Origin: an uncultured Fibrobacterota bacterium
GTDB lineage: Bacteria > Fibrobacterota > Chitinivibrionia > Chitinivibrionales > FEN-1185
Assembly (NCBI GenBank): GCA_963753345.1
Contig: CAVWBU010000023.1
Coordinates: 1 to 64,000 of the forward strand
DNA length: 64,000 nucleotides
Reading direction: 5' to 3'
The notes below the pieces were generated by a model. The model was not told the DNA's origin, searched no databases, and was given only the letters and a program-made list of their open reading frames with translations. Every line of letters starts with the position of its first letter. Positions within the stretch are counted from its first letter, which is position 1. The position numbers were made by a program, and so were the translations under genes. This document shows, piece by piece, positions 2,405 through 63,574 of this stretch.

Positions 2405-3075
2405 GGGGGAAGTTTCCCCCTCGCTGCGGCCCGGTCGCGCCGCTTTACAATCAAGAAACATGAATTTGCGCGACCGGTCCTCCGCTACCCCCTCTTGGGT
2501 GCACCCCAAGAGGAAGCGGTTACAGAACCTGGCACCTGTGTGGGGGCACCCACGAAGAGCAGTTGTACAGGTCGAATTCCTCGCTTTGTAACTTTGCGAG
2601 CGGAGCGAAGCAATCTTCTGATTTTTCAGAATAAAAAATTCCGTTCGCCTCATCCCCAACCCTTCTCCACAGCGTGGAGAAGGGAGTTTCAAGCATACTG
2701 TTTTTTATGTTTCCCCTCTCCACCTGTGGAGAGGGGTGGCCGCTATGGCGGCCGGGGTGAGGCGACGGTCCTGAGAATTGAAGAACCCCGCCCCAAGTGG
2801 CGGGGATTCTTCCATAGCTAAGGAAATAGAATAACAAATATTCGCCCGCTAACCCCGCGCCAAGTCGCGGGGAATGCGCGGGCTGTGCTATTCAACATAG
2901 CGCAAGTATTACTCCTTGACAAAACAGATTTCTTTTGCCGCGCGTTAGGTGGACCGCAGGGTGAGCCAGAGCGAATTGCCGGCCGACCCTCGCCGCAGGC
3001 GACTAGGGCGGTCCGGCAACGAGGCGAACAGCCGAGCCCGGAGGGAGACCGACCCCGCGAAGTGGGGGAACGCCC
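2405..3075 (+). repeat. Bipartite element copy 1: B (2405-2565), nested palindromic repeats, A (2916-3075)
   Basis: Matches the other B and A copies in the window; multiple hairpins. Confidence 0.9.
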
Positions 3076-3134
3076 GGATTCTTCTTATTTAGCCTTTGGA
3101 TTAATATTTCAAGGAGGTATTTTACAAGGCAACC

Positions 3135-5747
3135 ATGATCCTTTACAGATACATCATCAGGGAACACATCCTCCCGTTTTTCTACTCGCTCGGGATCCTG
3201 ATTTTCATTTTCGCGATGCAGCTTGCGGTGCAGCTTTTGCCGAGCATCATTGCCAAGGGCCTCAACCCGGGCGTCGTGTTCGAGATTTTCCTCATCAATA
3301 TAGCGTGGGTCGTCGCGCTTGCCATTCCCATGTCGATCCTTGTATCCACGCTCATGGCGTTCGGCCAGATGTCGGGCGACAACGAGATCATGGCGATAAA
3401 GGCGTCGGGCCACAATCTTACCTTCCTCCTCGCGCCGGTGCTCGCGGCGGCATGCGTGTTCACCGTGGTCACCACCTATTTCAACAACGACATCCTTCCG
3501 GACGCCAACCACCGCGCCGCGAACCTCCTTACCGACATCTCCCGCAAGAAACCGGCGGCACTCATAGAACCGGGCGTGCTCATCACCTCGTTTGAGAATT
3601 ACGCCCTGTTCGTAAAAAAGGTGAACGCGCAGTCCGGCGAACTCCGGGACGTCAAGATTTTCTCGCAGGTCCCCGGCGAAGACCCGTCGACCACCGTGGC
3701 CGAGCGCGGCACCCTCACCATGACAAAGGACGAAAAGCTGCTCAAGCTCACGCTGTACAACGGCGAGACCCACCGGCAGAACTCGAAGAGCAAAAGGGAA
3801 TACTTTGTGGCGCGCTTCCGCAGCCAGGTGTCCTTTATCAAGAACGTTGACACCGAACTGCGACGTACCAACAGCAGCTACCGCGGCGACCGCGAGAAGA
3901 GTTCGGCAATGATGCTGGGCGAGGTCGCCCAGTACCGGCAGGCCAAGGATTCCTACCTTAAGAGCTTTAGGGCAAGCATCGACTCCGCGCTCGTCCGCAT
4001 CGATTCGGTCGAGCGGCTCGCCGCGCGCCCCGCGCGCTCCGATTCCGCGGCGCGCACGGACTCGGCAGCGGATTCGTCCCACACCGTTGCCGCCTGGTTC
4101 TCGCAGTTCAGGTCGCCGGGCGCGCGGGAAACCGCCGCCTCGGCGGCGCGGCTCGAACACAGCACGGCGTCTCGGCTTGTCTCGCAGATAAAGTACCAGG
4201 AAACCAAGATAAGCCAGCTTATGGTGGAGGTGCACAAAAAGTTCTCCATCCCGGTCGCCTGCATCGTGTTCGTGCTCATCGGCGCGCCGCTCGGGATCAT
4301 GGCGAAGCGGGGCGGCCTCATGGTCGCCGCGGCATACAGCCTCTTTTTCTTCATTGTCTACTGGGCTTTTCTCATCGGCGGCGAATCGCTCGCCGACTCG
4401 TGCGTGATCTCGCCGTTCGCCGCCATGTGGACCGCGAACATCGTGATCGGCGCCTGCGGCCTTATCCTGCTCTTTCTCATGACAAAAGAGACGAAGTTCA
4501 TCTCCTTCGCGTTCTTTGGGAAATTCTATCACGCCGTGTTCGGCAGACATTCGACGGCCATGCGGCGGGTGGCGCCGCGGGGCGTCTTGAGCGGCGCGCG
4601 CGCGGCGGCGGCATGGTGCGCGAACCTCCCCTTTCGGCTCCTCAACAGAATCGCCGGAAGGCTGCCCACGTATCTTATCCGTAAATTCGCGGGATACTTT
4701 GTGGGTCTGTTTTTCGTCATCGTGATCATCTTCGTGGTGGTGGACTACGTATCGAACCTCAAACGGTTCGAAGGCGTGTCGTTTGTGACGGTGGCGCTTT
4801 TCTACTGGTACTACCTCCCGTGGCTCTTCGGCTTCGTGTTCCCCATTGTCATTCTGCTGTCGACCATGTCGGCAATCGGATCCATGGCCCGCCAGAACGA
4901 GCTCACGGCGATCAAAGCCGCAGGCGTCAACGTGCGCCAACTCGCCACGCCGCTCATGGCGCTCGGGGTACTGCTCGCGGCGTTCGGCTTTTACATAAGC
5001 GAAGGCGTGCTCCCGAAGGCGAACACCGCGCGAAGGGAACTCACCGAGCGGATGGGCGACGACCACGCCGCGCAGGCGCACAGCGCCCCGGCCGCGCGGC
5101 CGCAGGAATACCGCCGCAACTTTTACTATTTCGGCGACAACAGAAACATCTATTTTTTCGGGGAGTTCCGCACCGAGCCGCTGTACACCCGCAACGTGTG
5201 GCGCGAGACGTTCGACGGGCCCCGCATCATCAGGCGGATCTCGGCCGACGCGGCCGACTTCCGGAACGGACACTGGTCTTTTGTCAAGGGTTCGCTGCGG
5301 ACGTTCCTGAAGGACTCGGTGGCAATGACGACCTTCGACATCCTTGCCGACACGATTCTTACGGCGCGGCCGCAGGACATGGTGGCGCAGATACGCAGCC
5401 CCGAGGAAATGAGCTACTGGGAGCTCACGAGCTTCGTCGACAAGGCGCGGCGCCGCGGTGAAGACGTTTCGAAGTGGCGGGCGCAGCTCGATTTCAAGAT
5501 CGCGCTGCCGTTTTCGATCCTTATCGTGATCCTGCTCGGCATTTCCATCTCGGCACGCGTGGGAAGGAAAGGAGGCGCGGTCTTGTTCGGGATCGGTCTT
5601 ATGCTGTGTTTCTCCTACTGGATCATTTCCCAGTTCGCAATCGCCTTCGCGCAGAACGGGCAGTTGTCCCCAATCGTGGGCGCGTGGTTCGGCAATTGGC
5701 TGTTCCTCGGCATCGCCCTGCCGCTGTTCAGGAAGGCCTCGCAGTGA
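3135..5747 (+). CDS. Fused LptF-LptG LPS export permease (870 aa)
   Basis: Two permease halves: MILYRYI...DNEIMAIKASG...EVHKKFSIP and LPTYLIRKF...QNELTAIKAAG...KIALPFS; RBS aggagg. Confidence 0.9.
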   Translation: MILYRYIIREHILPFFYSLGILIFIFAMQLAVQLLPSIIAKGLNPGVVFEIFLINIAWVVALAIPMSILVSTLMAFGQMSGDNEIMAIKASGHNLTFLLAPVLAAACVFTVVTTYFNNDILPDANHRAANLLTDISRKKPAALIEPGVLITSFENYALFVKKVNAQSGELRDVKIFSQVPGEDPSTTVAERGTLTMTKDEKLLKLTLYNGETHRQNSKSKREYFVARFRSQVSFIKNVDTELRRTNSSYRGDREKSSAMMLGEVAQYRQAKDSYLKSFRASIDSALVRIDSVERLAARPARSDSAARTDSAADSSHTVAAWFSQFRSPGARETAASAARLEHSTASRLVSQIKYQETKISQLMVEVHKKFSIPVACIVFVLIGAPLGIMAKRGGLMVAAAYSLFFFIVYWAFLIGGESLADSCVISPFAAMWTANIVIGACGLILLFLMTKETKFISFAFFGKFYHAVFGRHSTAMRRVAPRGVLSGARAAAAWCANLPFRLLNRIAGRLPTYLIRKFAGYFVGLFFVIVIIFVVVDYVSNLKRFEGVSFVTVALFYWYYLPWLFGFVFPIVILLSTMSAIGSMARQNELTAIKAAGVNVRQLATPLMALGVLLAAFGFYISEGVLPKANTARRELTERMGDDHAAQAHSAPAARPQEYRRNFYYFGDNRNIYFFGEFRTEPLYTRNVWRETFDGPRIIRRISADAADFRNGHWSFVKGSLRTFLKDSVAMTTFDILADTILTARPQDMVAQIRSPEEMSYWELTSFVDKARRRGEDVSKWRAQLDFKIALPFSILIVILLGISISARVGRKGGAVLFGIGLMLCFSYWIISQFAIAFAQNGQLSPIVGAWFGNWLFLGIALPLFRKASQ

Positions 5748-8485: not shown

Positions 8486-9262
8486 TTCTCGGAAAGAAAG
8501 TGGCCGTGGTCCTTCCCGCCTACAACGCGGAAAAGACCCTGCGCAGCACCTACGACGAAATCCCCAGGGACATTGTTGACGAAGTGATACTCGTGGACGA
8601 CGCAAGCAGGGACCACACCGTGGCCGTGGCAAAGGCCATCGGCATACGGCATGTGTTGCAGCACGAAAAGAACCGCGGCTACGGCGCGAACCAGAAGACC
8701 TGCTACGCAAAGGCGCTTGAGATCGGCGCGGACATCGTGGTGATGCTCCACCCGGACTACCAGTACACGCCGAGGCTCATTCCCGCAATGGTCGAGCATT
8801 ATCGCGGGCGGCCTGTATCCGGTCGTGCTCGGCTCGCGCATTCTGGGCAACGGCGCGCGCAGCGGCGGCATGCCGTTTTACAAATACACAGCCAACCGTT
8901 TCCTCACGCTTGCGCAAAACATCCTTATGGGCCAGAAGCTCTCCGAATACCACACCGGCTACCGCGCGTTCTCGCGCGAGGTGCTGGAATCGGTCAACTG
9001 GAAGGACAATTCCGACGATTTCGTATTTGACAACCAGATGCTCGCGCAGATCTGCTTTGCCGGGTTCCCGATCGCGGAAGTGACGTGCCCCACAAAGTAT
9101 TTCAGGGAAGCGTCGTCGATAAATTTTGTGAGGAGCGTGAAGTACGGGTTGGGAGTGCTGAGCGTGGCGGTGGGATACAGGATGGAGAAGTGGGGGTTGG
9201 GGAAACGGGGGATGTTTAACCCCCAAGGGCCCGGAAGCACAAACCAGGTCAAATCCCGCTGA
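8482..9262 (+). CDS. GT2 (DPM1-like) glycosyltransferase, frameshift at ~8794
   Basis: VVLPAYN, VDDAS and HPDYQY in one frame continue as VLGSR...EYHTGYRAF...FVFDNQML in another. Confidence 0.88.
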
Positions 9263-10466
9263 CCGGTATTGCCCGAGAAGACCGGTCAATAGGAACGGTA
9301 TTTTCAACAAGACAGACAACCGCCCCTGCGCCGCGTTTTTGTGAGAATCTGTCGATAAGAGGAAAACTCTGCACCCACTCCTTCCTGACTGTTGCGTTTC
9401 TTTTGATTTCCACAGGATAAAGCTTGTTGTCCTGCTCAATAAGAAGGTCGATTTCCCTTCCATCCCTGTCTCGGAAGAAATAGAGTGACGGCCGGCGGGC
9501 GCAAAAAAGATGACTTTTCAGGATCTCGATCACCACAAACGTCTCGAAAATTGCACCGGACATGGCGCCCTCGCGGAGCGTTGCCGGTGAAGACCATCCT
9601 GTCAGATATGAACAAAGGCCTGTATCGACGAAATACAGCTTGGGTGTTTTTACCAGACGTTTTGTAATATTGCTGTGAAACGGCGGAAGCAGAAATACCT
9701 GAAAGCTGGCGACGAGCATCGACATCCACCGTTTTGCCGTCGCCATGTTTATGTCCACGTCCCGAGCCAGATCGGCGATATTGAGAAGTTGCCCTGTGCG
9801 CGCCGCGCATGCCTTGATAAACCTCGAAAACTGTTCAAGGTCGCCGACCTGCGCAAGGTCTCGGATGTCGCGGTGCAGATAGGTTTGCAGATAAGAACCG
9901 TAGAAAACAGACCAGTCGGTGCCGGGGTTTGCCGAAAGCGCGGGAAATGATCCGCGCCATATTTCACCGAAAATCGATGTGGGAGTATGGAGCGCCTTTC
10001 TTGCGGTTGGGCGAATGTCAAGCGACGGAATAAACGGCGCTTCCTTGCCGGCCAGACCGGATTTCTCCTTGAGCGACAGACCGAGCAGATCGATCACCGC
10101 CACCCGGCCCGCCAGTGTTTCGGAAACGCCTTTCATCATCTGGAACTGCTGCGAACCGGTGAGCCAATAGGCACCGGGCGCATGATCACGATCAATGCGC
10201 ATTTTGATAACGGGGAGCAGTTGAGGGGCGTATTGTATTTCATCGATCATCAGTGGCGGCGGAAACTGCTCAAGGAATAGATTCGGGTCTTCGATGGCGA
10301 GCGATCTGATCGACATGTCGTCGAGCGTAACTGAAGCGCGGCCTTTTTCCTTGATCTTCTGCAGCATGGTCGTCTTCCCCACCTGACGCGGGCCGGTCAG
10401 CAGAAGAGCGGGAAATTGCTTTGATAACGCAAGAAAACTGGTTTCAAGCGAACGGCGCATGTACAT
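9249..10466 (-). CDS. AAA_14/DUF4143 ATP-binding protein
   Basis: Walker A GPRQVGKT, IDEIQY, TGSQ, KTPKLYFVDTGL and EIDL...PVEIK motifs. Confidence 0.92.
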   Translation of the reverse strand: MYMRRSLETSFLALSKQFPALLLTGPRQVGKTTMLQKIKEKGRASVTLDDMSIRSLAIEDPNLFLEQFPPPLMIDEIQYAPQLLPVIKMRIDRDHAPGAYWLTGSQQFQMMKGVSETLAGRVAVIDLLGLSLKEKSGLAGKEAPFIPSLDIRPTARKALHTPTSIFGEIWRGSFPALSANPGTDWSVFYGSYLQTYLHRDIRDLAQVGDLEQFSRFIKACAARTGQLLNIADLARDVDINMATAKRWMSMLVASFQVFLLPPFHSNITKRLVKTPKLYFVDTGLCSYLTGWSSPATLREGAMSGAIFETFVVIEILKSHLFCARRPSLYFFRDRDGREIDLLIEQDNKLYPVEIKRNATVRKEWVQSFPLIDRFSQKRGAGAVVCLVENTVPIDRSSRAIPVSGI

Positions 10467-10471
10467 AATAG

Positions 10472-10521
10472 GCCTCGGCTGGTTTATTACTATTATAATA
10501 AACTAGCCGAGGCAGAGTCAA
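10472..10521 (-). promoter_or_regulatory. sigma70 promoter of the ATPase, overlapped by an 18-bp inverted repeat
   Basis: TTGACT-N18-TATAAT on the minus strand; arms 10472-10489 and 10496-10513 with one mismatch. Confidence 0.7.
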
Positions 10522-10584
10522 GACAAATTTTCTGACTGACAAAAACTGCGTCGTATAAAATGTATTCGGTATACCATTTTCATA

Positions 10585-10620
10585 TTGACAGTAAATATCA
10601 TAAATTGTATATTATCTGTC
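10585..10620 (+). promoter_or_regulatory. sigma70 promoter of the AbiE operon with an overlapping inverted repeat
   Basis: TTGACA (10585)-N17-TATATT (10608); GACAGTAAATAT...ATATTATCTGTC. Confidence 0.72.
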
Positions 10621-10623
10621 GTT

Positions 10624-11232
10624 ATGAATAATCGCGTTGACGACTACCGGCTCATTGAAAAATGGTCTTCCCCCATGGGCGGAGTCTTCTCCCTCAGCGA
10701 TTTGAAAAACCTCTTTAATGAAAAAACCCCGCTGCTTCTGCACCGGAGGGTCCGTGCTCTAGTTATTCTCGGCGTGCTCGCACGCTTCAAACGGGAATTC
10801 TACGTAACGGAAAAATTCAACCTCGAAACACTGTCGCAAAGGCTGTATCCGGATTCGTATATAAGCCTGGGCACTGTTCTGGCGCGCCATCTGTTAATTG
10901 GTTCCATCCCCGCGAAAACCATATACGCTGTAAAAACAGGCCGTAACCGTATTTTCAGTTCCACCGTGGGCAACCTGGTGTATTGCGGCATCGCGCCGCA
11001 TCTGATGTTTGCCTTTGCATATGAAAACGGCATACGGTATGCAACGGCAGAAAAGGCATTTCTTGACACATTGTATTTTTATCAGAAGGGATTCCGCTTT
11101 TCCTTTAATATTTTCGAGGACATAGACGTTTCCCCGTTGGATATGAAGAAGATTCGGGGCCTGCTCAAACGGTACAGGAACCCGAAATTCGTCACCTTTG
11201 TAAAAGGAGTACTCTCTGGCAGACATTCATGA
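10624..11232 (+). CDS. AbiEi-like type IV antitoxin / transcriptional regulator
   Basis: SYISLGTVLARHLLI and ATAEKAFLDTLY motifs; directly upstream of AbiEii. Confidence 0.8.
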   Translation: MNNRVDDYRLIEKWSSPMGGVFSLSDLKNLFNEKTPLLLHRRVRALVILGVLARFKREFYVTEKFNLETLSQRLYPDSYISLGTVLARHLLIGSIPAKTIYAVKTGRNRIFSSTVGNLVYCGIAPHLMFAFAYENGIRYATAEKAFLDTLYFYQKGFRFSFNIFEDIDVSPLDMKKIRGLLKRYRNPKFVTFVKGVLSGRHS

Positions 11233-11245
11233 CACGGAAGGCCTG

Positions 11246-11947
11246 ATGGTCTGGATAATCAACCAGCTTGCCGACAGGTTCGGCAGCCACGCCGTATTAA
11301 AAGGCGGGATGGAGCTGCGGATCGTGGACTGCCCGCGCTTCACCAACGATCTTGATTATGTCTTTATACCGTTTGTCTCGAAGAAAGAAATAAAGGACCG
11401 GATCCTTGAAGCTCTCAGGGAAAACCCGGAGCTTGACGTTTCATGTTCCGTGAACTCGAAATGCATACGATACCTTGTCGCACAGGGAAACATCAAAGTC
11501 CAGGTTGAGGTCAATGTCGCCCTTGAATGCGAAAGCCGGGAAATGAGCACTTCGTCGCTTGCGAAATCGAAAAACCAGCAGGGCAGAATGATCCGCGTCA
11601 TGGATTTTGATTCGGCGCTTGCGCACAAACTCGCGGCGTGGAATGAAAGGGGCCTTGTAAGGGACCTGTATGACGCGTATTATCTGTGCGTGATTTTGCG
11701 GGCAAAACCGGATGTGAAGGTCCTCAAACAACGGCTGGCCCATGTGGAAAGAAGAAAGAAGGGGGCAAAGCCGATGGTGATGAGCATTGATGATTTTATT
11801 GACAACCTCGAATCGGCCGCGCGCGATTTGACGGAGGATACGGTGAAAAACGAGCTCAGGGATTACATGCAGCAGGAGGAACTGGCGGGGCTGGACAGGA
11901 AAATTATCGGGGGAATAAGCAAAGTCGTTGAGTATTTGCGAACGTAG
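11246..11947 (+). CDS. AbiEii/AbiGii nucleotidyltransferase toxin (possible CTG start at 11216 after the AAAGGAG RBS)
   Basis: LKGG, RFTNDLDY and HKLAA...RDLYD motifs. Confidence 0.85.
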   Translation: MVWIINQLADRFGSHAVLKGGMELRIVDCPRFTNDLDYVFIPFVSKKEIKDRILEALRENPELDVSCSVNSKCIRYLVAQGNIKVQVEVNVALECESREMSTSSLAKSKNQQGRMIRVMDFDSALAHKLAAWNERGLVRDLYDAYYLCVILRAKPDVKVLKQRLAHVERRKKGAKPMVMSIDDFIDNLESAARDLTEDTVKNELRDYMQQEELAGLDRKIIGGISKVVEYLRT

Positions 11948-12024
11948 AGGGGCTGCACTCGGGAGGAAGCATCGTCGATAAATTTTGGGGGAAGGTTTAG
12001 ATTAGCAACAAGAATATTATTTGT

Positions 12025-12207
12025 GGGGGAGGTTTACCCCGTCGGGTAATTCCAAGGGTCGTCCCCCTCGCTCCGGCCCGACGCTCATATTTTCAGAGTA
12101 CATCTCATTTCGCGCCGGTCCTCCGCTACCCCCTCCTGGGTGGCCCCCAAGTGGAGACAGTTGCAAGAATCAAGCACCCGTGTGGGGGCACCCACGAAGA
12201 GCGGCTG
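12025..12207 (+). repeat. Solo B module (copy 2)
   Basis: GGGGGAGG...CCCCCTCGCTCCGGCCC...GGTCCTCCGCTACCCCCTCCTGGGT...GGGGGCACCCA. Confidence 0.9.
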
Positions 12208-12230
12208 GAAAAGAAAATAGCCTTCTCATT

Positions 12231-13913
12231 TCATCGTACCACCTTTTCATCCCCGCCTTCCCCAGCCTTCCCCGCCTCCCTCACAAAATACACATACCCG
12301 TACTCCGCCTTTACTTCCTTCAGCTGCGGCAGCTTGCGGTACTGCCACGCCTTGTCTATTCTGCAAACGAAATACGCGGGTTTATCTATCGGGCCGTTGA
12401 TCAGCCAGTCCTCGTCGTAGTCTTTGGGATTGCCCCCGGGTTTCTTCTTTGCATAGAACAGGTCGGCATAGCTCTTGAAAAGCGCCCGTGCATAAACGTC
12501 CTTTCCAGCAACGCTCCGGAATAATTGAATGGGGCCGGCGTCGGTATAGTATTCCATTTTCGGAACAAATGCGATCATTGCTGTCTGAAGACACAGCGCA
12601 GTCGACACAAGAAGCGTCGCGAACCCTGCGCCGAAACGTTTGCGCGAAAGAAGAATTGCCGTTACAATGAGCGCCGCGCCGTATCCTGCACCGATGAGCA
12701 TCTCCGCGTAATGCCAATGGCCCGGATACGTGAGGCAGTCGCGCGCGAACGGATCGTGCACGAGCGGTGTGAGCCACCGGGTGTGCATCATGACAAAAGG
12801 GAACGCCGCGACAGCGGCGGCGACGATCAGGCCGAACGCGACGAGCGATGCGGTGAGCCAGCGGTTCCACGCGAGTTTTCCCGCCATCACCGCGTGCATG
12901 TGATACGCGGCAAGAAAAGTTAGGGGAAAATAGCACAGCGACGAATACAGCACGGTCTTTGTCTTGACAATAGAAAACAGGACCAGCACCACCCAGAATA
13001 CGATAAGCATCCACCGGGTGAACCGCCGCTGTTCTTCGGTTCCTGTCTTGCCGGGAAAAAACGACCGGATGGCCATGAACGACGCGGGAAAACACCCGAA
13101 CAGCAATATCACAAAATGAAACCAGAATGGCCTGCCGTGGCCGGCCGCTCCCGACGTTAACAGCTCCATCTGATATTTGACAAACCTGGTGACGAACCAC
13201 GGCCCGTGCGCCATGGTCTCGGCGCCGTACCAGAGAAGCGCAACAGCCGCACACGTCACGGTGCAGACCACAATTCCTTTCCACGAAATGAACCTTCCGA
13301 AACCGCTTCGTGACGCCCAGTAGACAAACGCGCACAGCACTGCCACGATAACCGCCACCGGTCCCTTGGTGAGGGTCGCACAGCCGAGGAATGCTCCGGC
13401 GAGCGCGAGGAATCCGGCCGCACTCCCTGCTTTTTCATCAGCCATATCACTTTTGTAAAGGAAATAGATGCCGCAGAAAATAAACAGGTTGAACACCGGA
13501 TCGATGATGCCGGACTTGAAGAACAGGTGCGGCAGGAACGAGCCGATAAACGCGCCTGCCCACAACAACCCGAACCTCCTGTCGAACACGCTTCTTCCGA
13601 TGCGATACACCACCAGCAGGGTTGCAATACCGCACAGCGCATTGACAAATCGGGCGGCGAACTCGTTAACGCCGAACACGGCCATAGAAGCGGCCTGCAG
13701 CCAGAAAAACAGCGGCGGCTTTTCCCAGAACGGCTGGAAGTTGATCTGCACCTGGAGAAAATTATGCGTTACAAGCATCTCCCGGGCGGCTTCGGCGAAA
13801 TTGATCTCGTCCCAGTCGAACAGGTGGGCGGCGCCGAGAAAGGGGATAAAGAAGAATATTCCCGCGGTGAGGATAAGGAGCTGGAATAACAGTTCTTTGT
13901 TTTTCGAGTTCAC
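12231..13913 (-). CDS. ArnT/PMT_2-family (GT-C) glycosyltransferase
   Basis: LFDWDEINFAEAAREM, EKPPLFFW, EFAARF and LTKGP motifs; multiple TM segments. Confidence 0.92.
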   Translation of the reverse strand: MNSKNKELLFQLLILTAGIFFFIPFLGAAHLFDWDEINFAEAAREMLVTHNFLQVQINFQPFWEKPPLFFWLQAASMAVFGVNEFAARFVNALCGIATLLVVYRIGRSVFDRRFGLLWAGAFIGSFLPHLFFKSGIIDPVFNLFIFCGIYFLYKSDMADEKAGSAAGFLALAGAFLGCATLTKGPVAVIVAVLCAFVYWASRSGFGRFISWKGIVVCTVTCAAVALLWYGAETMAHGPWFVTRFVKYQMELLTSGAAGHGRPFWFHFVILLFGCFPASFMAIRSFFPGKTGTEEQRRFTRWMLIVFWVVLVLFSIVKTKTVLYSSLCYFPLTFLAAYHMHAVMAGKLAWNRWLTASLVAFGLIVAAAVAAFPFVMMHTRWLTPLVHDPFARDCLTYPGHWHYAEMLIGAGYGAALIVTAILLSRKRFGAGFATLLVSTALCLQTAMIAFVPKMEYYTDAGPIQLFRSVAGKDVYARALFKSYADLFYAKKKPGGNPKDYDEDWLINGPIDKPAYFVCRIDKAWQYRKLPQLKEVKAEYGYVYFVREAGKAGEGGDEKVVR

Positions 13914-13946
13914 AATTGCTCATTTCAATAATTTCAAATTCAAGAC

Positions 13947-14364
13947 TTGGGCGCCCCGCCGCATCGCGGCGGCGGCCCTCCTTTCAGGCTCGGCCTAACG
14001 GCCTCGTTGCCGCCTGCCACAAGGGCTCTTCGAGCCGTGGTCAGGCGGCAATGCGCTCCAGCGCACCTTCCAGTCCGGCCTGGCGCGCGGCAGAGGAAAT
14101 CTATTCAGTCAAGTACCTTCTTGCGCCAGCCGGAATAATTAGACAATCCGTCAAGACTTCTCATTGTCCTGCTGTCAACTGTCAACCGTCAACTTTTCAA
14201 CTCTCTTTCTCGGTGCCCCCTCAGCCGAGGTTTTTTTCTCGCACATCAACCCTCTAGGGGGCTACGCACGAGGGGGTGTGGGTGCGGATCGCCGGCGCCT
14301 CGCATGATATTTAGCTTTGTCAAGAAGGCGCCGGAAGCCGCACCCCAGGGGGAAACTTCCCCCT
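13947..14364 (-). repeat. Bipartite element copy 3: B (14200-14364), heptamer spacer, A (13947-14133)
   Basis: Reverse complement aligns with copies at 20198 and 39568. Confidence 0.9.
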
Positions 14365-14388
14365 CCAAGACAACTTTTTTCATCTATT

Positions 14389-17175: not shown

Positions 17176-17307
17176 GGGAGCCGCGTGTAGGCGGAAAACG
17201 TCGCACCGAATGTGTGTTTGTGCATATGAAAAATACTTCTGCAGGAATTTTCCCGCTACTGGAATGTATTTTTCACCGGTGTTTGTTTCCCTTACACCGG
17301 GCAAATC

Positions 17308-18918: not shown

Positions 18919-18984
18919 GAAATGCGCCGAAATCACGTCTTGTTCCGGAAAATCCATAATCATCAGAACCAAGGATCCACAATC

Positions 18985-20169: not shown

Positions 20170-20197
20170 TACAAGATAAGAAGAAGGTTTCTTTGGT

Positions 20198-20635
20198 GGG
20201 GGAAGTGTCCCCCTAGGGTGCGGCTTCCGGCGCCTCCTTGACAAAGCTGAACAAATGCGCAGGCGCCGGCGATCCGCACCCATACCCCCTCCTGGGTAGC
20301 CCCCTAGAGGAAGCAGTTGCAAGAATCAAGCACCCGCGTGGGGGCACCCGAGGAGAGTAGTTGAAAAGTTGAATAGTTGAATATTAAAGAAGTATTTATG
20401 ATATTGATCTTGAGAATTCCGATTGGCGCAAGAAAAAGCAATTGACTGAATAGAATTCTGTTGCCGCGCGCTAGGTGGACCGGAGTGGTCCCGCCATAGC
20501 GGGATTGCCGCTGACCACGGCCCGCAGGGCCCTCGTGGCAGGCGGCAACGAGGCTGAAGGCCGAGCCCGGAGGGAGACCGGCCCCTTTTATAGAGGCGCA
20601 ATATCTTTCGCCTCTACAAAAGGGGAAACGCCCAA
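20198..20635 (+). repeat. Bipartite element copy 4: B (20198-20363), octamer spacer, A (20419-20635)
   Basis: Full B-spacer-A layout. Confidence 0.92.
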
Positions 20636-20677
20636 CGTTCTTGGTTCAAAGGGAAGTATTTTATCTAAATATCACCC

Positions 20678-21826: not shown

Positions 21827-21850
21827 CCTTCAAATCGCTTGCCAAGTAAT

Positions 21851-21882
21851 AAAGGCGCCCGAATGCGGGCGCCATTTCTTTT
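21851..21882. terminator. Probable bidirectional intrinsic terminator
   Basis: GGCGCCCG-aatg-CGGGCGCC with A-rich and T-rich flanks, between convergent genes. Confidence 0.65.
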
Positions 21883-24736: not shown

Positions 24737-24903
24737 TGAGAACCCCCCTTTTATGGTTAATCGGATAAATAATGATCGAAAACTTCCGCACTGCATGCCC
24801 GTTGGCACCAGTCAGATCTGGTCTATAATATAAGGTATTTGGGGCGATTTGGCAAATAAACGCGATGTGGTGGTAAGAGTAATATTTGGAGTAAGAAAAA
24901 GAA

Positions 24904-25050
24904 TTGGGCGCCCCGCCGCTTCGCGGCGGCGGCCCTCCTTCCGGTCTCGGCCTTCGGCCTCGGGCCGCCTCGGCCCTATGCCGCAGCAGCGGTCGGGTCC
25001 GGGCGGCACCGCGCTCCAGCGCGGCCTCCAGTCCTGCCTGGCGCGCGGCG
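24904..25050 (-). repeat. A module (copy 5), partner of B at 26519
   Basis: Nearly collinear with A at 59356. Confidence 0.9.
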
Positions 25051-25211
25051 AAACGACCAATGCCGCAATTGTCAAGGTCCTGTTTACAATCCGCAATATA
25101 CAATCAACAATCTACAAGAAGGAGTCTTGCCGGGCACAGATAAGGAATTCATCAGGCAGTTCCTTCTATCTATGAGCCGCGGAAATAGTGAACCATTGAA
25201 ACCGCATTCTA

Positions 25212-26389: not shown

Positions 26390-26518
26390 ACGACATCCGG
26401 CCCATTCCACTTTGTATTTCTACTTCTTTGTCATTTTGTATTTCTTCAACAATCGCTCCTTGGTGCCCCCGCAAGAAGAAAAGTTACAAAGTGACAAAGA
26501 GAAGTAAGTGCATAGTAC

Positions 26519-26679
26519 CACTGCTCTCCATGGGTGCCCCCACGCCGGTGCTTGATTCTTGCAACAGCACTCTCAAGGGGTGCACCCAGGAGGGGGTAGC
26601 GGAGGACCGGCCGCGGCCATTCAGAATACTGTCTTGAAAAGTGTCGCGGCCGGGCCGGAGCGAGGGGGAAACCTCCCCC
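26519..26679 (-). repeat. B module (copy 6), with a partial duplicate end at ~26452-26470
   Basis: Reverse complement aligns with B at 2405 and 12025. Confidence 0.9.
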
Positions 26680-26716
26680 GCAAAAAGTCACATCTTGATA
26701 AACCATAATTACAATC

Positions 26717-38650: not shown

Positions 38651-38651
38651 G

Positions 38652-39529: not shown

Positions 39530-39567
39530 TAGTGATTGACAAAATGATACTAATTAAGAATTCTGGT

Positions 39568-40067
39568 GGGGGAAGTATCCCCCTGGGGTGCAGCCTCCTC
39601 GGAAAGGTTTTGGTTTGTCTTGTTTGTCAACCTTTCCTGTGGGGTCTGCACCCACACCCCCTCCTGGGTAGCCGCCTTGATAAGGCAGTTGTAAGACCAC
39701 ACATTGTTGTGGCGGCACCGATGGAGAGTAGTTGAGAAGTTGAGGAGTTGAGAAGAAAACGCGTTGAAAAGTTGAAGAGTTGAAACGTTGAATGGTTAAG
39801 AAGTTGACACATATACGGGTAGACGCATTAACGCGTTCACGTATGCGTGTTTTTAACACCGATTGGCGCGAAAAATGTAAATTGACAGAATAGATTTCTT
39901 ATGCCGCGCGTTAGGTGGACCGGAGGGTGCGTAAGAGCGAATTGCCGGCCGACCCGGCCGACAGGCATAGGGCGGTCCGGCAACGAGGCCGAATGGCCGA
40001 GCCCGGAGGGAGACCGACCCCTTGCAGAGTCGCACGACCGTGCGACTCCGCAAGGGGGAACGCCCAA
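39568..40067 (+). repeat. Bipartite element copy 7: B (39568-39734), octamer array, A (39859-40067)
   Basis: Full layout; about ten (A/C/G)GTTGANN-like 8-mers, some degenerate, in the spacer. Confidence 0.92.
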
Positions 40068-40077
40068 TTCTTTCTCA

Positions 40078-45974: not shown

Positions 45975-46313
45975 CTCATGAGTGGCGGGTGGCTGGAAAG
46001 GGTTGAGAGGTTGAGACGGCCGACGGACAGAGGGTTAGGAGTCAAACTGGATTCGTGATTTCATTCCTCCCTTTCCCACAAATCGGAATACCTGCACGGT
46101 TGTAAGAGCAAGCCTGAAGAGGCAAAAGTCCGGACGCTCGGCAATACCGCCGGAGCCGGCAACGCGGCAATTCCTTGCGCAGCCGTTAGTTCCGTTTTCG
46201 CACTATCTGCCGCAACAAGAAGGCTGTTCCCTTTTCAATCCTTTGCAGAGGACCGGGAATGCTTATTGCTCTCGTACTTGGAATGGCCTGGTTCAAATAG
46301 ATGGGGGTTTGCA

Positions 46314-54740: not shown

Positions 54741-54888
54741 ACCTGTTCTCGATTCTGCTGATGCATCACTTTGGACGGGAAATACCGAACCGCCGCCCTT
54801 CTGAAAATAAGGTTTTCCGGGGAAACAGTCAACTTTTGACAAATGAATGAGATGGGCGCCCCGCTATTTTTGTTTTAAAACTTAGAAT

Positions 54889-55329
54889 TTGGGCGTTCCC
54901 CTCCCCCTCGACAAAGCTCGGGGTCGCGTCGGTCTCCTTCCGGGCTCGGCTATTCGCCTCGTTGCCGGACCGCCCCGAGTCGCCTTCGGCGAGGAGTCGG
55001 CCGGCAATTCGCTTTAGCTCACCCTCCAGTCCACCTAACGCGCGGCAGAGGGATTCTATTCAGTCAAGAGTTTCTTCTCTCGCCAATCGGTATCCCAAGC
55101 AAATCAATCAAGACTTCTTCTTTGATTTTTCAACTCTTCAATCTTTCAACCATTCAACGTTTCAACTTTTTCTTTGCCACTGCTCTCCTTGGGTGCCCCC
55201 CAACCGAAGCAGCTTTCTTGCAAGTAAACTTACTTTGGGGCCACCCAGGAGGGGGTAGCAGAGGACGCCGAAGGCGGCCGGAGCGAGGGGGACGACCCTT
55301 GGAAGTACCCGACGGGGTAAACCTCCCCC
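54889..55329 (-). repeat. Bipartite element copy 8: B (55178-55329), octamer spacer, A (54889-55090)
   Basis: Reverse complement aligns with copies 1, 2 and 7. Confidence 0.92.
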
Positions 55330-55466
55330 ACTATATTCTGGTCTATTGCATCATCTATTATCATTGACAATAAAAACAGTATATTATCGGCAGAGCCCCT
55401 TCGGACCCATCACCGTCTCTTGTTCGGCGTCATCATAACCTCCACCTCATTCCCTTGGGGGACCCG

Positions 55467-59334: not shown

Positions 59335-59355
59335 AGACGACGATAGTATACATAC

Positions 59356-59760
59356 TTGGGTGCCCCGCCGCTTTGCGGCGGCGGCCGTCCTTCCGGTCTC
59401 GGCCTCCGGCCTCGGGCCGCCACGGCCCTATGGCCCACAGGGCCGGGTCCGGGCGGCATCCCGCTCTAGCAGAACCTCCAGTCCTGCCTGGCGCGCGGCA
59501 ACCGAATTTTCTTCAGTCATTTACTTTTTCTCGCGCCAATCTGTATCAAATTAAATCAGGCAAGGCTTTTTTTGTTGGAACTTCTCAACCTCTTCTTTTC
59601 AACAACTCTCCTTGGGTGCCCCCCAACTACAGCTTTACACTTGCAACTACTCCAACTTGGGGGCCACCCATGAGGGGGTAGCGGAGGAACGGCGCGCGGT
59701 TGACATTGTGATATCACCGGGGAGAGCGCGCCGGGCCGGAGCGAGGGGAATACTTCCCCC
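59356..59760 (-). repeat. Bipartite element copy 9: B (59603-59760), spacer, A (59356-59543)
   Basis: Full layout. Confidence 0.92.
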
Positions 59761-59880
59761 ACATGCAACCTCTATTGCTTGCCAAAAATCATCATCCTGA
59801 AATTTATGGACTAAGCCCTGTTCCGCAGCGTATCTTTCTGAGGAGAAAAAATCCCCCGAAAGAACCCGTATCTGCTATCA

Positions 59881-61218: not shown

Positions 61219-61391
61219 AGAGCGCGGGAAAAAATGTGAGCGTTGCCCCCTCCTTGACCTTTGCCATAACCATTAAAATAAATCGGACGGATAGCCAGCC
61301 GCATGTTCAACAGCCATCTGTAAAACTGTGCGCCACGATCTTTCCCCGATCGTGTACCGTCCGCAAAGATCGCTGTTGAGGACTACACTAC

Positions 61392-63227
61392 ATGAAACTT
61401 GACAATCCCCTCGTCCAAAAAATATTGATCTTTCTTATCGGGCTGATTGCCTGGGGAAATGTGGCCAATTTCGGATTTGTTTGGGATGACACCAGTTATA
61501 TCGTGTATAACCAATCGATAAAAAGCCCGGCAAATGTGCCGCGATATTTCTTCGACATCTCCACAATGTCCCAGGGCAAGGATGGCGCGCTCGCCGCTGT
61601 CTTCAGGCCGTTGCGGAACGTTTCGTACTTTTTCGATTACGCCGTTGCGGGGCTTAACCCGGTTTGGTGGCACGTTCATAACCTGCTGCTGCATCTGATT
61701 GCCGTATTCCTGGTGTATTACATTTTGCGTCGGCTGATCGGCGGGCGCTACGCGGCCTTTCTCGGATCTCTTGTGTATCTTCTGCATCCGGTGCAGGTCG
61801 AAGCAGTAGCGTGGATAAAGGGCCGGGACGACCTTTTGTCAATGCTGTTTATACTGTCGGCATTTACCGTATGGATCAAGTCGGTGCGGTTTACCCTCTT
61901 TCGAATCGCACTTCTCTGCATGCTTTTTCTCTGCGCCTGTCTTTCGAAAGAACAGGCCATTGTTCTTCCGGTTCTGCTCTGCTTGTATGAAATTCTGCGG
62001 GCACCGCGATTGTGTGAAAATGGCGTCTGGGTTCGGAACCTGATGCTCTCAAAAAAGACATGGGCCCTGTGCGCCTTGTTCATCATTGCCGGGGGATACC
62101 TGGCATGGCGCACCACGGTTATGGGGAAAATCGGACAAGGGGCCTATCTTGCAGGGGACCTGTATTCAACGATGCTTACGATGATACGGGTGGCGGTTTA
62201 CTATGTCAGGCTTGTTGTATATCCGGTCCATTTTTTTGTTGATTACGCGTGGATTACCCCGTCCCATTCATGGTATGAATGGCGGGTGCCGGCCAGCGCG
62301 TGCATCCTTGCCATTATCGGCGCTGCGGCATTTTTGGTGCGGAAGAGGAACTTCTATTCCGCGTACGGCGTGCTATGGTTTTTTGTCTGCCTTCTGCCGG
62401 TTTCCAATATTGTTCCGACAATGCAATATATGGCCGAACGGTTTTTATATATGCCACTGTTCGGCGTCGCCTTGCTCTTTGCCGATGTCGTCAAGTATTG
62501 TGAACAACGGTGGCGGACCGCGACCGTGGCGGTTTCAACATGCATGGTCCTCTTTCTGGGTGTTCAGACCATACAACGCGCCTCGATCTGGCGCAGCGAC
62601 ACCACCCTTTTCGGAGCGACGGCGCGGGAAACAGGCTATCAACTTGCGCGACCGTATTTTAATTGGGTTGCGGCGCTTCTCAAGCAGGGAAAGGGCGCTG
62701 AGGCATTGCCGCATGCCCAGGCCATGTGGAAACGATACAGCGCCTCCAGCAGCATCAGCAAACTCCAGCTTTCCGGTCTGGCGCACAATCTCGGCGCGGC
62801 ATATTTATTATGTAACGACGTGAGCAATGCCCTGGTTTTTTTTCATATCGCCTATGCCACGGACTCAGCCAATGCGTACAACGCGCTGTGCGTCGGGCTC
62901 GCTGAGGAAAAGGCAGGCAATGCCGAGTCGGCCCTCAAATTTCTTGACAGAAGCTTGAAACTTGAACCCAATAATTCCAATGTTTTATTTCAGCGCGGTC
63001 TTGTCCTCAAGTCCCTTCGAAATTATGCGGGAGCGGAAAATGCGTTTCGCGCAAGTCTGGCGATCACGCCGAGCGAGGAAACCGTCTATTGCGCTTTGTT
63101 CGACCTGCTGTATGAGCAGAAGAAGTTCGCCGAAGCCGAAAAGGTCATAAAAGACGCACGAGCGCGATGGCCTGCAGACAGCAATCTTGCGGAAAAAGAA
63201 AAAGCGCTGCAGTCGGCCGGGCAGTAA
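61392..63227 (+). CDS. TMTC-like GT-C membrane glycosyltransferase with TPRs
   Basis: FVWDD, FRPL, HPVQVEAVAWI..R, SKEQA and AERFLY motifs; C-terminal TPRs. Confidence 0.85.
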   Translation: MKLDNPLVQKILIFLIGLIAWGNVANFGFVWDDTSYIVYNQSIKSPANVPRYFFDISTMSQGKDGALAAVFRPLRNVSYFFDYAVAGLNPVWWHVHNLLLHLIAVFLVYYILRRLIGGRYAAFLGSLVYLLHPVQVEAVAWIKGRDDLLSMLFILSAFTVWIKSVRFTLFRIALLCMLFLCACLSKEQAIVLPVLLCLYEILRAPRLCENGVWVRNLMLSKKTWALCALFIIAGGYLAWRTTVMGKIGQGAYLAGDLYSTMLTMIRVAVYYVRLVVYPVHFFVDYAWITPSHSWYEWRVPASACILAIIGAAAFLVRKRNFYSAYGVLWFFVCLLPVSNIVPTMQYMAERFLYMPLFGVALLFADVVKYCEQRWRTATVAVSTCMVLFLGVQTIQRASIWRSDTTLFGATARETGYQLARPYFNWVAALLKQGKGAEALPHAQAMWKRYSASSSISKLQLSGLAHNLGAAYLLCNDVSNALVFFHIAYATDSANAYNALCVGLAEEKAGNAESALKFLDRSLKLEPNNSNVLFQRGLVLKSLRNYAGAENAFRASLAITPSEETVYCALFDLLYEQKKFAEAEKVIKDARARWPADSNLAEKEKALQSAGQ

Positions 63228-63446
63228 CCAGGTGAAATCCGGCGGAAGGATTTGACCGTACGGGTGGACAGTCGGGTGTGTGACAACTATCTGTTAATCC
63301 CTGTGCCACGATCATCCTTGATCGTGCAGCGTCCGTAAAGGGTCCAGTCGAGGACGACGGTGGCACATAATTTGTTATTTTAGGTTTTGAAAGGCACCGG
63401 TGTGACATAGTGATAAAGTCACAAAGTAGCAGTAAGTGCATGGTAC

Positions 63447-63574
63447 CACTGCTCTCCATGGGTGCCCCCGCAGCAGAGCATGGTTTCGTAACTACTCTCT
63501 CTAGGGGTGCACCCAGGAGGAGGTAGCGAAAGACCGGCCGCAGGCCGGGCTGAAGCGAGGGGGAGACTTCCCCC
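63447..63574 (-). repeat. Solo B module (copy 10)
   Basis: Shares the extended tail AGTAAGTGCAT(A/G)GTACCACTG with copy 6. Confidence 0.9.

Follow-up and report, generated by a model that had tools for sequence, protein, structure and literature searches.

The two intergenic modules described here, A and B, form a mosaic of separable parts rather than one fixed bipartite element, and we favour, with moderate confidence, their reading as a new, previously undescribed BOX/BIME-like mosaic family of small dispersed repeats. The host genus is an uncultured, Chitinivibrionales-like member of the Fibrobacterota. A preliminary description of a 64-kb stretch of its DNA (the window) had listed nine B and seven A loci as parts of a single B-spacer-A element. 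Profile HMMs built from these window copies and then run over the whole genome with nhmmer matched all 16, each within 27 nt of the start first given and with E values from 1e-31 to 1e-51, and returned no further window copies at E<1e-3. The copies are the following.

2397..2572, + strand: B module with three hairpins (nhmmer E 1.7e-42).
2889..3083, + strand: A module (nhmmer E 1.2e-49; covariance-model core 2932-3087, cmsearch 161.5 bits), with 52 nt from the module end (3083) to the start, at 3135, of a gene assigned to lptF/G by Pfam.
12017..12217, + strand: lone B with convergent genes on either side (profile match) and a nested 29-nt mini-module at about 12038-12066, in the loop of the first hairpin.
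13942..14139, - strand: A module (profile and covariance-model matches), 29 nt upstream of the start (13913) of a glycosyltransferase gene (PMT family, by Pfam).
14188..14371, - strand: B module, partner of the A at 13942-14139 (profile match), the spacer between them (14140-14187) carrying GTTGA-type 8-nt repeats.
20189..20374, + strand: B module (profile match), about 20 nt past the stop of the upstream gene (20169).
20412..20641, + strand: A module (profile match; covariance-model core 20458-20645), with a GT2 gene start (20678) 37 nt further on.
24897..25086, - strand: A module (profile and covariance-model matches) upstream of a GH2 gene (start 24808), its B partner lying 1,426 nt off with two single-copy ORFs in between.
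26512..26686, - strand: B module (profile match), about 30 nt past the stop (26717) of a gene that is conserved, single-copy and encodes a GIY-YIG domain.
39560..39744, + strand: B module with the CCGCC/GGCGG variant of the long stem (profile match), about 30 nt past a stop at 39529.
39851..40074, + strand: A module (profile and covariance-model matches), its 3' end 4 nt from the stop of a converging gene (40078); GTTGA 8-nt repeats are abundant in the spacer (39745-39850) that follows the B at 39560..39744.
54883..55098, - strand: A module (profile and covariance-model matches), 41 nt ahead of a gene start (54842).
55167..55335, - strand: B module (profile match) with a nested 29-nt mini-module at about 55288-55316, in the first hairpin.
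59350..59551, - strand: A module (profile and covariance-model matches), its 3' end adjoining the stop of an opposite-strand gene (59334).
59590..59764, - strand: B module, partner of the A at 59350-59551 (profile match).
63440..63582, - strand: lone B with a short second hairpin and convergent genes on either side (profile match); at this site the closest relative carries an oppositely oriented A.

Across the 4.5-Mb genome the profiles yield 422 A and 281 B matches, together 121,966 nt or 2.7% of the sequence, which are spread evenly across the contigs and reach to within 300 nt of 19 of the 110 contig ends. These matches fall into 451 clusters that follow few fixed orders, namely B then A (189 B-spacer-A units), A alone (137), B alone (77) and two A head to head (27), the remaining orders occurring one to seven times each. 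The statement that every A has a same-strand B upstream holds for the window (7/7) but not genome-wide, given the lone A copies and A pairs among the clusters, and the fixed bipartite element of the preliminary description is given up in favour of parts that combine in several arrangements. The separable modules comprise B (about 140-200 nt), a spacer of 8-nt GTTGA repeats, A (about 190-230 nt), a 45-nt extension that some A copies carry at their 3' end, and the mini-module of 29 nt, which is present in at least 68 copies nested at three different positions within A and B. In 73 of the 422 A copies the first ~40 profile positions, corresponding to the A/T-rich 5' part, are missing.

The anatomy of both modules is as first described: A runs from an A/T-rich 5' part with TTGAC and GAATAGA through a GC-rich multi-hairpin core to a terminal CGCCCAA, and in B a GGGGGA-loop-TCCCCC hairpin is followed by a second, variable one and then by a long third stem. 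With a helix of 5 bp closing it, the A core forms a multi-helix domain that spans about 140-190 nt. In 108 copies, 96.2% of the cells of this fold are paired, compared with 81.2% in shuffles (a value of 96.2% being reached by 0/500) and 35-46% in slid controls, and changes on both sides are found in 21 of 28 pairs. The same fold applied to 32 copies from nine other genomes gives 94.8% paired cells against 72.1% in shuffles, with 22 of 28 pairs double-changed and four pair types at one position of the closing helix. The exchange of TTGCCGG/CCGGCAA for TTGCCGC/GCGGCAA noticed in the window is borne out by pair 66-235 of A, which 67 of the 108 copies have as CG and 27 as GC, and the variable hairpins retain their fold despite unrelated sequences (mean z -1.95 and -2.67). 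These comparisons show compensatory changes that preserve the predicted A fold in this genome and also between families of the order, where unpaired purine-rich motifs of the core are also conserved; single-stranded segments rich in GGA/GGAGG are conserved as well. An excess of G-U over A-C cells (183 vs 25), together with tandem G-A pairs, points to the '+' strand as the likely folding strand of the A core. Covariation had been claimed for A and B alike; it is strong in A and weak in B, which is largely invariant and has few double changes (4/19 pairs, a count also reached by 76 of 500 shuffles), even though the CCCCC/GGGGG versus CCGCC/GGCGG swap reappears at B pair 178-221 (CG in 56 and GC in 13 of 70 copies). 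Abundance and the covariation of A both support the original view of a multicopy, structure-constrained intergenic element.

Gene context was taken from crude in-house gene calls, by which just one A midpoint of 422 and two B midpoints of 282 lie inside predicted genes. Modules occur between divergent, convergent and codirectional genes, in agreement with the preliminary description, and are enriched in convergent spacers, where 127 (31%) of 404 A and 71 (26%) of 270 B lie, although such spacers make up 13% of the total. The outer module ends lie at a median of 21-22 nt from stop codons and are followed by T-rich tracts, and no conserved target motif was seen at the module flanks. The gene downstream of A is on the same strand in 203 of 404 cases and on the opposite strand in 201, and 74 A copies are antisense to both neighbours. 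In codirectional spacers the modules tend to be oriented with the flanking genes (A 134 vs 74, p=4e-5; B 111 vs 37, p=9e-10). The neighbours are unrelated housekeeping genes, both here and in five distant genomes, and no conserved ORF was found adjoining the modules among them. A riboswitch or gene-specific leader, already thought unlikely in the preliminary description, is rejected because the neighbouring genes are unrelated, belonging to no single pathway, and because one A copy in two points at a gene's 3' end, leaving no constant position.

Comparison with other genomes reveals gain, loss and replacement at orthologous sites, which is compatible with mobility or turnover. One species of the genus lacks the modules at loci 3-6, and a second species shows a lone, oppositely oriented A at two of these loci as well as modules at two sites that are empty here. 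The closest relative, which differs by 18.6% at 4-fold sites, carries an inverted A where the present genome has B plus spacer, and an additional B at 61.2 kb. Five of the nine positional orthologues are no closer than the median paralogue, the other four being 88-92% identical (in ungapped columns, a value inflated by the gap-tolerant aligner) compared with 81% at 4-fold sites. In syntenic alignments identity amounts to 81.3% for modules (gap share 9.6%), 84.9% for other intergenic DNA and 81.4% for 4-fold sites, showing that the modules change between sister species at what appears to be about the neutral rate. The mobility first proposed is supported by differences in presence, orientation and module type at orthologous sites but not by a clean pair of empty and filled sites with exact breakpoints, none of which was recovered, the polymorphisms being replacements or lying in diverged DNA.

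Within the genus, five of six species have hundreds of copies, and the sixth (99% complete) has none. No strong matches were obtained in two other genera of the same family, 6 of 53 genomes from other families of the order contain weak short homologues, among them one possible head-to-head A pair in a distant genus, and 63 genomes from eight further families of the phylum gave no homologues. A scan of 185,579 species genomes with an exact pattern found three that match, labelled Fibrobacterota, Fibrobacteres or Chitinivibrionales. Rfam 15 has no match in the window at gathering score, in keeping with the earlier failure to name a family, and at E<=10 the locus at 20150-20700 gives three chance-level matches of 13.7-17.8 bits against gathering scores of 48-86.

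The earlier observation that no cognate enzyme is evident in the window is supported, since 0 of 45 ORFs scanned there encode a transposase, recombinase or HUH enzyme. Y1_Tnp (PF01797) has no matches in the present genome (94% complete) or in the closest relative (73% complete), but is present in three of the six species of the genus, and the same search was positive in 6 of 14 control genomes. Around the four Y1 genes of three species, each examined over 3.5-4.5 kb, no A or B lies within about 1.5-2.3 kb even at E<=1. The present genome further gives no matches to the TnpB-type domain (PF07282) or to RVT_1 (reverse transcriptase), has a single IS110-family gene and shows seven DDE_Tnp_1 matches; a repeated ORF was seen in none of 42 B-to-A intervals of 265-4,817 nt, one of which was checked by search. 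Target-site duplications were sought at 140 B-A units, 14 A pairs and 22 lone A, with boundaries set from motif anchors and offsets of 0-8 nt scanned, and match counts for k=2-8 did not exceed the maxima from permuted flanks (at k=5, for example, 5 observed against a largest permuted value of 5). No terminal inverted repeats bounding the B-A unit were seen, the 5' end of B not being the inverse of the 3' end of A; within A alone, ATTGGCG and CGCCCAAT match weakly over about 8 nt, and 20 of 31 copies of a linker motif give an end inverse to the B 5' motif, such an end being confined to a subset of A copies with the 45-nt extension.

In the closest published parallel, a study of BOX, RUP and SPRITE repeats (PMC3049150) describes these families as genus-restricted, slow to transpose, extensively folded into secondary structures and co-transcribed. 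Like BOX of Streptococcus pneumoniae, which is assembled from boxA, boxB and boxC, the A/B family has separable modules in variable numbers, is intergenic and extensively folded, and shows a genus-restricted expansion where BOX is confined to a genus or species. BOX elements number about 100-130, whereas the A/B family has about 700 modules that are longer (A 190-230 nt, B 140-200 nt), a closed multi-helix domain in A instead of a simple extended hairpin, and short homologues across families of an order. The likeness is one of kind only, without sequence similarity (homology was checked through Rfam only), and we know of no transposase that has been assigned to BOX. REP/BIME and REPIN-RAYT systems of Proteobacteria are long-persisting, high-copy structured extragenic repeats near gene 3' ends. 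The A/B family shares the copy number, structure and position of such repeats and also their mosaic or doublet arrangements, BIMEs occurring as mosaic combinations or inverted doublets. REP units, however, are single palindromes of about 20-40 nt as against the 190-nt multi-helix A, and where a REPIN consists of two short inverted palindromes forming one long hairpin, the commonest unit here is B followed by A on the same strand (189/451). A REPIN-RAYT system is defined by a single-copy RAYT flanked by REPs, for which no counterpart was found. The REPIN-like label of the preliminary description is not supported: searches found no Y1/RAYT gene here or in the closest relative, and no A or B beside the Y1 genes of three other species. 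MITEs such as Correia/NEMIS of Neisseria are short, non-autonomous, intergenic and high-copy and can carry signals affecting neighbouring transcripts, yet a DDE transposase gives them target-site duplications, and they end in terminal inverted repeats; neither repeats bounding the B-A unit nor duplications above controls were seen, and the MITE-like label is not supported either. Comparative genomics has also turned up large structured non-coding RNA motifs of unknown function, such as the HEARO/omega RNAs of IscB, with covariation-supported multi-helix folds (100-200 nt), a link to mobile DNA and in some cases many copies; the A/B family differs from these in that searches found no Rfam match in the window (nor above chance at E<=10 in the locus at 20150-20700), no TnpB-type gene and no adjoining conserved ORF.

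Several other readings have to be weighed against that of a mosaic mobile repeat. The modules may serve the host as cis-acting RNA, with B as a 3'-UTR domain, terminator or exonuclease block and A as a 5' leader or as an insulator that separates transcription units; the family would then be retained for shaping mRNA ends genome-wide. We regard this as unlikely, although several observations favour it: the 5' end of B lies at a median of 21.5 nt past the stop of a same-strand gene (182 of 270 cases), module orientation follows the flanking genes, the outer ends lead into T-rich tracts, the fold is specific to the '+' strand, and its core is conserved across the order. Where A faces a gene start in the window, its 3' end leaves about 29-89 nt, so the promoter of such a gene must be within or upstream of A. 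This promoter placement counts against the mosaic mobile-repeat reading, as do the orientation bias in codirectional spacers, the four positional orthologues of 88-92% identity and the conservation of the A core across families including its unpaired motifs, the last of which would also be expected of a host-useful RNA. On the other side, 201 of 404 A copies aim at the 3' end of an opposite-strand gene and 74 are antisense to both neighbours; a simple scan found no canonical terminator or sigma-70-type promoter inside the modules, and the A 5' motifs lack the TTGACA-17-TAtaTT spacing that visual inspection suggested ahead of tRNA genes. Orthologous sites vary in the presence, orientation and type of module, the sequences of the modules diverge at least as fast as other intergenic DNA and 4-fold sites, one member of the genus does without modules, and they are few or absent in most genomes of the order. 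A trans-acting or protein-sequestering multicopy non-coding RNA of a new class, which would be transcribed from its own A/T-rich 5' part and end after CGCCCAA and a T-rich tail, is quite improbable. Its closed and strongly covarying fold, the conserved GGA/GGAGG-rich single strands, a conserved TTGAC..TAGATT region directly ahead of the first paired base, an A orientation independent of the neighbouring genes and the lack of an Rfam match fit such an RNA, but the 5' part is missing in 73 of 422 copies, its motifs are not a normally spaced promoter, and hundreds of diverged, neutrally evolving copies, varying from zero to hundreds among close species, would be unusual for it.

Still less probable is a role as DNA-level sites for nucleoid or replication proteins, with hairpins that would arise incidentally where binding sites are palindromic. 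IHF and gyrase are bound by BIMEs, and both the conserved motifs outside the stems (TTGAC, GAATAGA, ATTGGCG and the 8-nt GTTGA arrays) and the even spread over contigs would suit such a role; however, compensatory changes retain pairing and not sequence, the variable hairpins fold with unrelated sequences, and G-U and tandem G-A pairs favour one strand, a bias that double-stranded sites do not need. We think it very improbable that the modules are ends or non-autonomous derivatives of an HUH single-strand transposon (REPIN with RAYT, or IS200/IS605). Asymmetric hairpin-rich ends, the lack of target duplication and the strand-specific fold agree with this origin, and the 27 head-to-head A pairs, with possibly one more in a distant genus, resemble inverted REP doublets, but the modules are 5-10 times longer than REP sequences and the searches for Y1_Tnp here and in the closest relative, for A/B beside the Y1 genes of three other species and for TnpB-type domains here were all negative. 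Miniature IS200/IS605 derivatives in particular are rejected on the lack of PF01797 and PF07282 matches in this genome and on the B-to-A intervals, in which no repeated ORF was seen. That the analysis found no enzyme, no duplications above controls, no conserved target motif and no clean pair of empty and filled sites is counted against the mosaic mobile-repeat reading too.

Under the favoured mosaic-repeat reading, the A/B modules are probably selfish and would have multiplied to about 700 in one genus. A trans-acting enzyme or recombination machinery would recognise the fold on a single-stranded intermediate, whereby the fold would be selected in propagating copies and not at each locus, and copies would spread slowly or overwrite one another. 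Modules that are co-transcribed would extend the 3' and 5' untranslated regions of their neighbours by large stem-loop domains, a side effect that may sometimes be useful. More tentatively, and with the same low probability as the cis-acting role, the A core may represent a new class of large structured RNA of about 120-190 nt with four or five helices, found order-wide in Fibrobacterota, that would be transcribed from many loci and either act genome-wide on expression or copy itself via an RNA or single-stranded intermediate with a novel enzyme. If so, B-spacer-A would be a portable 'end-of-gene / start-of-gene' cassette in about 190 intergenic regions of one genus.

To our knowledge, the mechanism by which most small dispersed repeat families of bacteria, BOX and ERIC among them, spread is still unknown. 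The A/B family is a well-marked case, with about 700 modules in 4.5 Mb, a large fold, unusually clear covariation and conservation beyond the genus, and the sister species without copies makes a phyletic-pattern search for the responsible enzyme possible. In practical terms, the modules interrupt the assembly of these uncultured bacteria of peat and sediment, as the contig ends attest, and might be misread as regulatory RNAs. Should the fold function at the RNA level, it would represent a large RNA class that is new, from a phylum for which hardly any RNA biology is known.

The two folded non-coding repeat modules A and B were recovered by profile HMMs trained on the window's own copies at the places where the preliminary description had put them, nine B and seven A with no others, and model-free repeat finding recovers the same families. 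B, 140-200 nt long, opens with a GGGGGA-loop-TCCCCC hairpin, continues with a second hairpin of variable length and A/T-rich loop, and ends in a long third stem. A, 190-230 nt long, begins with an A/T-rich part of about 45 nt bearing the motifs ATTGGCG, TTGAC and GAATAGA, followed by a GC-rich multi-helix domain, the A core, which is closed by a 5-bp helix and has the terminus CGCCCAA. No Rfam family matches the window at the gathering score, in agreement with the initial failure to assign the element to a named family, and one B-A locus searched at E<=10 gives chance-level matches only. A consensus scan for promoters and terminators found none within the modules; a promoter made of the 5' motifs of A was likewise rejected, their spacing differing by eye from that upstream of tRNA genes. 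Many tRNA genes throughout the genome have, also by eye, a TAtaTTTt-like box upstream, sometimes with TTGACA 17-18 nt further upstream, suggesting that this box is the look of the organism's -10 region.

Across the assembly (4.5 Mb, 55 contigs, 56% G+C), the HMMs match 422 A and 281-282 B modules, together covering 121,966 nt or 2.7% of the genome. These form 451 clusters with few fixed arrangements.

Arrangement of modules in the clusters of the genome
B then A, same strand: 189/451 clusters, median gap 56 nt
Lone A: 137/451 clusters
Lone B: 77/451 clusters
Two A head to head: 27/451 clusters
Any other order: 1-7 occurrences each

The 'bipartite element' first proposed, B followed by a spacer and A, therefore holds as the commonest combination but not as a fixed unit, since its parts are separable and variously arranged within a mosaic of modules; in relatives, too, parts of the unit are found singly. 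The mosaic extends to smaller pieces. A 29-nt mini-module with at least 68 copies sits in the loop of B's first hairpin, including that of two of the window's B copies, and at two places within A. A linker motif occurs 31 times in the genome, and 20 of its copies connect the A 3' end to a short end motif inverse to the B 5' end. The B-to-A spacers are packed with 8-nt tandem repeats built on GTTGA, which occurs in them 322 times versus twice for its complement, at 16 times the density in the genome. An inverted pair of such GTTGA-type arrays also lies at 746-787 and 852-893 of the window, with convergent genes either side and no A or B beside it. Long spacers, at 2575-2890 and between B and A at many places in the genome, have several more families of small palindromic repeats nested within them; examples are CCCCGCC..GGCGGGG-type hairpins and a CATTGCGAGCG..GCAATC palindrome, which recur on other contigs. 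The median identity to the nearest paralogue within the genome is 91% for A and 86% for B (over at least 120 nt), with 25 A and 12 B pairs at 95% identity or above. Contig ends lie within 300 nt of a module match in 19 of 110 cases, making the modules one cause of assembly breaks.

The fold of the A core was described by a covariance model whose structure derives from 18 copies and whose search of 445,565 bases of the genome returned 108 copies. In the window, the first paired base of the core is at 2932, 20458 and 39898 in three examples. In these, 96.2% of 2,835 cells hold standard pairs versus 81.2% in shuffles (0/500 as high) and 21 of the 28 pairs are changed on both sides, the cells not being independent events because the model itself guided the alignment and the copies belong to a small number of subfamilies. 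Sliding the partner columns lowers pairing to 35-46%, and the top pairs of an unbiased mutual-information scan comprise true Watson-Crick pairs as well as non-pairing subfamily markers. In an independent set of 32 copies from nine other genomes, 12 of them short versions that come from five genomes in other families, 94.8% of cells are paired, versus 72.1%, and both sides have changed in 22 of the 28 pairs; the long-range closing helix shows UA, GC, CG and AU at one position. The covariation initially reported for A is thus upheld in both sets. Folding on the '+' strand, as originally drawn, is borne out by an excess of G-U over A-C cells (183 versus 25, or 39 versus 24 with two G-U-consensus positions left out, p=0.08) and by one subfamily having a tandem G-A / A-G pair where others have G-C / C-G.

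The corresponding claim for B stands in part: doubly changed cells number 21 versus 4.6 expected (0/500 shuffles), but the conserved stems are nearly invariant and the double changes fall at 4 of 19 pairs, a count reached by 76 of 500 shuffles. The outer part of the long B stem pairs poorly (82.6% in our alignment); an alternative proximal hairpin, with 74.6% of cells paired, is weaker than the long stem and was discarded. The second B hairpin and the last A hairpin keep their folds with unrelated sequences, at mean z-scores of -1.95 (235 copies) and -2.67 (291 copies) against dinucleotide shuffles. RNAalifold applied to a sequence-only nhmmer alignment produced poor structures.

The position of the modules relative to genes was assessed with our own crude codon-usage gene caller, whose start codons are unreliable. 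Module midpoints fall within predicted genes in 1 of 422 A and 2 of 282 B, and convergent spacers, which make up 13% of all spacers (444/3,318), hold 127 of 404 A and 71 of 270 B. The B 5' end lies a median of 21.5 nt past the stop of a same-strand upstream gene (182 cases), or a median of 120 nt from a divergent upstream gene (88 cases); the A 3' end points towards a same-strand gene start in 203 cases and towards the stop of an opposite-strand gene in 201, the latter at a median distance of 22 nt. Within codirectional spacers, orientation with the genes outnumbers that against them for both A (134 versus 74) and B (111 versus 37). The flanks show only that an A-rich stretch precedes B and a T-rich one follows A. 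Neighbours in the window include lptF/G, a BamD-like gene, a PBP, glycosyltransferases, GH2, a heparinase-like gene and a SpoIIE-type phosphatase. A-core copies of distant genomes also neighbour unrelated genes, for example those for lipid A acyltransferase, sigma-54, AspRS, GcpE and OmpA, and about half of them adjoin the stop of a converging gene. The window further contains, at 46301-51300, a very large surface-type protein gene with about 16 tandem units of 243-252 nt (82 aa) of the Listeria-Bacteroides (InlB B-repeat) type; its sequence gives two overlapping ORFs (46301-48493 and 48318-50762), suggesting a frameshift or an assembly slip within the repeats.

Comparison with other species of the genus revealed turnover at orthologous spacers, several of which are referred to here by locus number. 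The closest relative, differing at 18.6% of 2,641 four-fold sites, shares occupied sites at loci 3, 4, 5/6 and 8. It has an inverted A with a 45-nt extension where the own genome has B and a 317-nt spacer, an A in place of the lone B at 63.4 kb, and an extra B at 61.2 kb within a rearranged segment. Simple insertion was rejected for this extra B, which sits between two diverged copies of an intergenic segment of about 170 nt; in the window, two copies of the same segment (about 100-170 nt, at 61222-61392 and 63257-63358) are about 70% alike and lie either side of a TPR gene, so the site is taken as a rearrangement. Among three more distant species, whose coding DNA is about 70-80% identical, one has no module at loci 3, 4 and 5/6. 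Another carries a lone A pointing the other way at each of loci 3 and 4 but no module at 5/6, and two spacers without modules in the own genome are occupied in it, one by a B-A unit and one by a lone A. Presence, orientation and module type thus differ between species, and the fixed presence that would speak against mobility is not what the orthologous sites display. Over ungapped columns, four of nine positional orthologues are 88-92% identical, with 0-19 paralogues closer, and the other five are no closer than the median paralogue, with 63-217 paralogues closer.

Syntenic alignments with the closest relative
A/B modules: identity 81.3%, gap share 9.6%
Other intergenic DNA (may include missed genes): identity 84.9%, gap share 3.7%
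Coding DNA: identity 91.1%, gap share 0.1%

With 81.3% identity against 81.4% at four-fold sites, the modules change at about the four-fold rate, with more indels. Logan contigs of four DNA runs, aligned to window 11500-28500, are broken at or piled on the modules and contain no clean excision joint; in three of the four runs, 244 other letters take the place of the lone B at 12 kb. Upstream of this B, a stretch of low GC (49-53%) at 9249-12000 holds an AAA_14 + DUF4143 gene and an AbiEii-type toxin gene. The closest relative has a B about 44 nt past the end of the block aligned with the orthologue of the gene at 8825-9262, so the stretch may be an island that was inserted immediately before the lone B (12017).

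As the preliminary description had stated, the window offers no cognate enzyme, none of 45 scanned ORFs being a transposase or recombinase. In a search of the genome for PF01797, PF02371, PF07282, PF01609 and PF00078, no Y1 (HUH), TnpB-type or reverse transcriptase match was found, and one IS110-family gene and seven DDE_Tnp_1 matches were. Y1 genes occur in only three species of the genus, where neither A nor B flanks them, and target-site duplications did not exceed permuted controls. Two candidates near modules were set aside: orf275 and orf120, which separate the A at 25.0 kb from the B at 26.5 kb, are single-copy without Pfam match, and a GIY-YIG-domain gene beside one B is conserved as a single copy in 54 of 61 genomes from the order, that of the module-less species among them. 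The two ORFs are absent from the closest relative, and three of the four DNA runs cover their stretch (25.1-26.2 kb) at low depth (0-2.6). The sole IS110-family transposase gene lies at a contig end (C16:258596-261149), and about 220 nt downstream of its stop are 22-24 nt like the A-core start (GGTGGACCGGAGGGTGAGC region); IS110-type elements are known to target repeats, so an A copy may be where this gene was inserted. In one species of the genus, DDE transposase-family matches number at least 147 and Y1 genes eight, versus seven and none in the own genome; insertion-sequence load is thus very uneven among these species and does not follow the modules.

By DNA similarity, the unit is present in four of five other species of the genus and absent from the fifth (99% complete); two further genera of the family and 23 genomes belonging to the order's other families lack it as well. 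With the A-core covariance model, every one of the five species that carry modules yields at least 45 strong matches and the sixth yields none, and weak matches occur in 6 of 53 genomes of other families, with 1-16 copies each of 117-178 nt. These short homologues keep the closing helix, a GCGUUAGG-like start, a CGAGG..GCCGAGCCCGGA centre and a GGGGAACGCCCAA end. All six matches outside the own genome in a phylum-wide sample (E<=1e-7) fall within families of the same order, with none in 63 genomes of eight further families, and the three genomes matched by an exact-pattern scan of 185,579 species, one genome each, are titled Fibrobacterota, Fibrobacteres or Chitinivibrionales bacterium. The titles and abstract openings of the literature on Chitinivibrionales or Fibrobacteres repeats make no mention of elements like these.

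Together these observations favour a dispersed repeat family of the BOX/BIME kind over a gene-specific regulator: the modules form an intergenic mosaic with ends adjoining stop codons and no link to gene function, range from zero to hundreds of copies among close species, replace one another at orthologous sites and change near-neutrally. The same trait set is described for pneumococcal repeats (PMC3049150). On balance, we lean slightly towards a selfish, structure-dependent repeat. Structures in untranslated regions that serve the host would fit the orientation bias within codirectional spacers and the folding strand; set beside the differences at orthologous sites and the near-neutral rate, this reading appears unlikely. 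A trans-acting RNA, for which the covarying core would be the natural candidate part, is quite improbable, near-neutral change in hundreds of diverged copies being unusual for such an RNA. Modules acting as sites at the DNA level, or of HUH-type origin, are very improbable; hairpins kept with unrelated sequences and the strand-specific pairs both speak against the former, and against the latter, the Y1 genes of the genus are not flanked by modules.

The A/B family is distinguished by its A core, which is large, has a closed multi-helix fold, covaries strongly and is conserved outside the genus as well. Together with the strand-specific pairs and the orientation bias, these features would be in keeping with a possible role at the RNA level.
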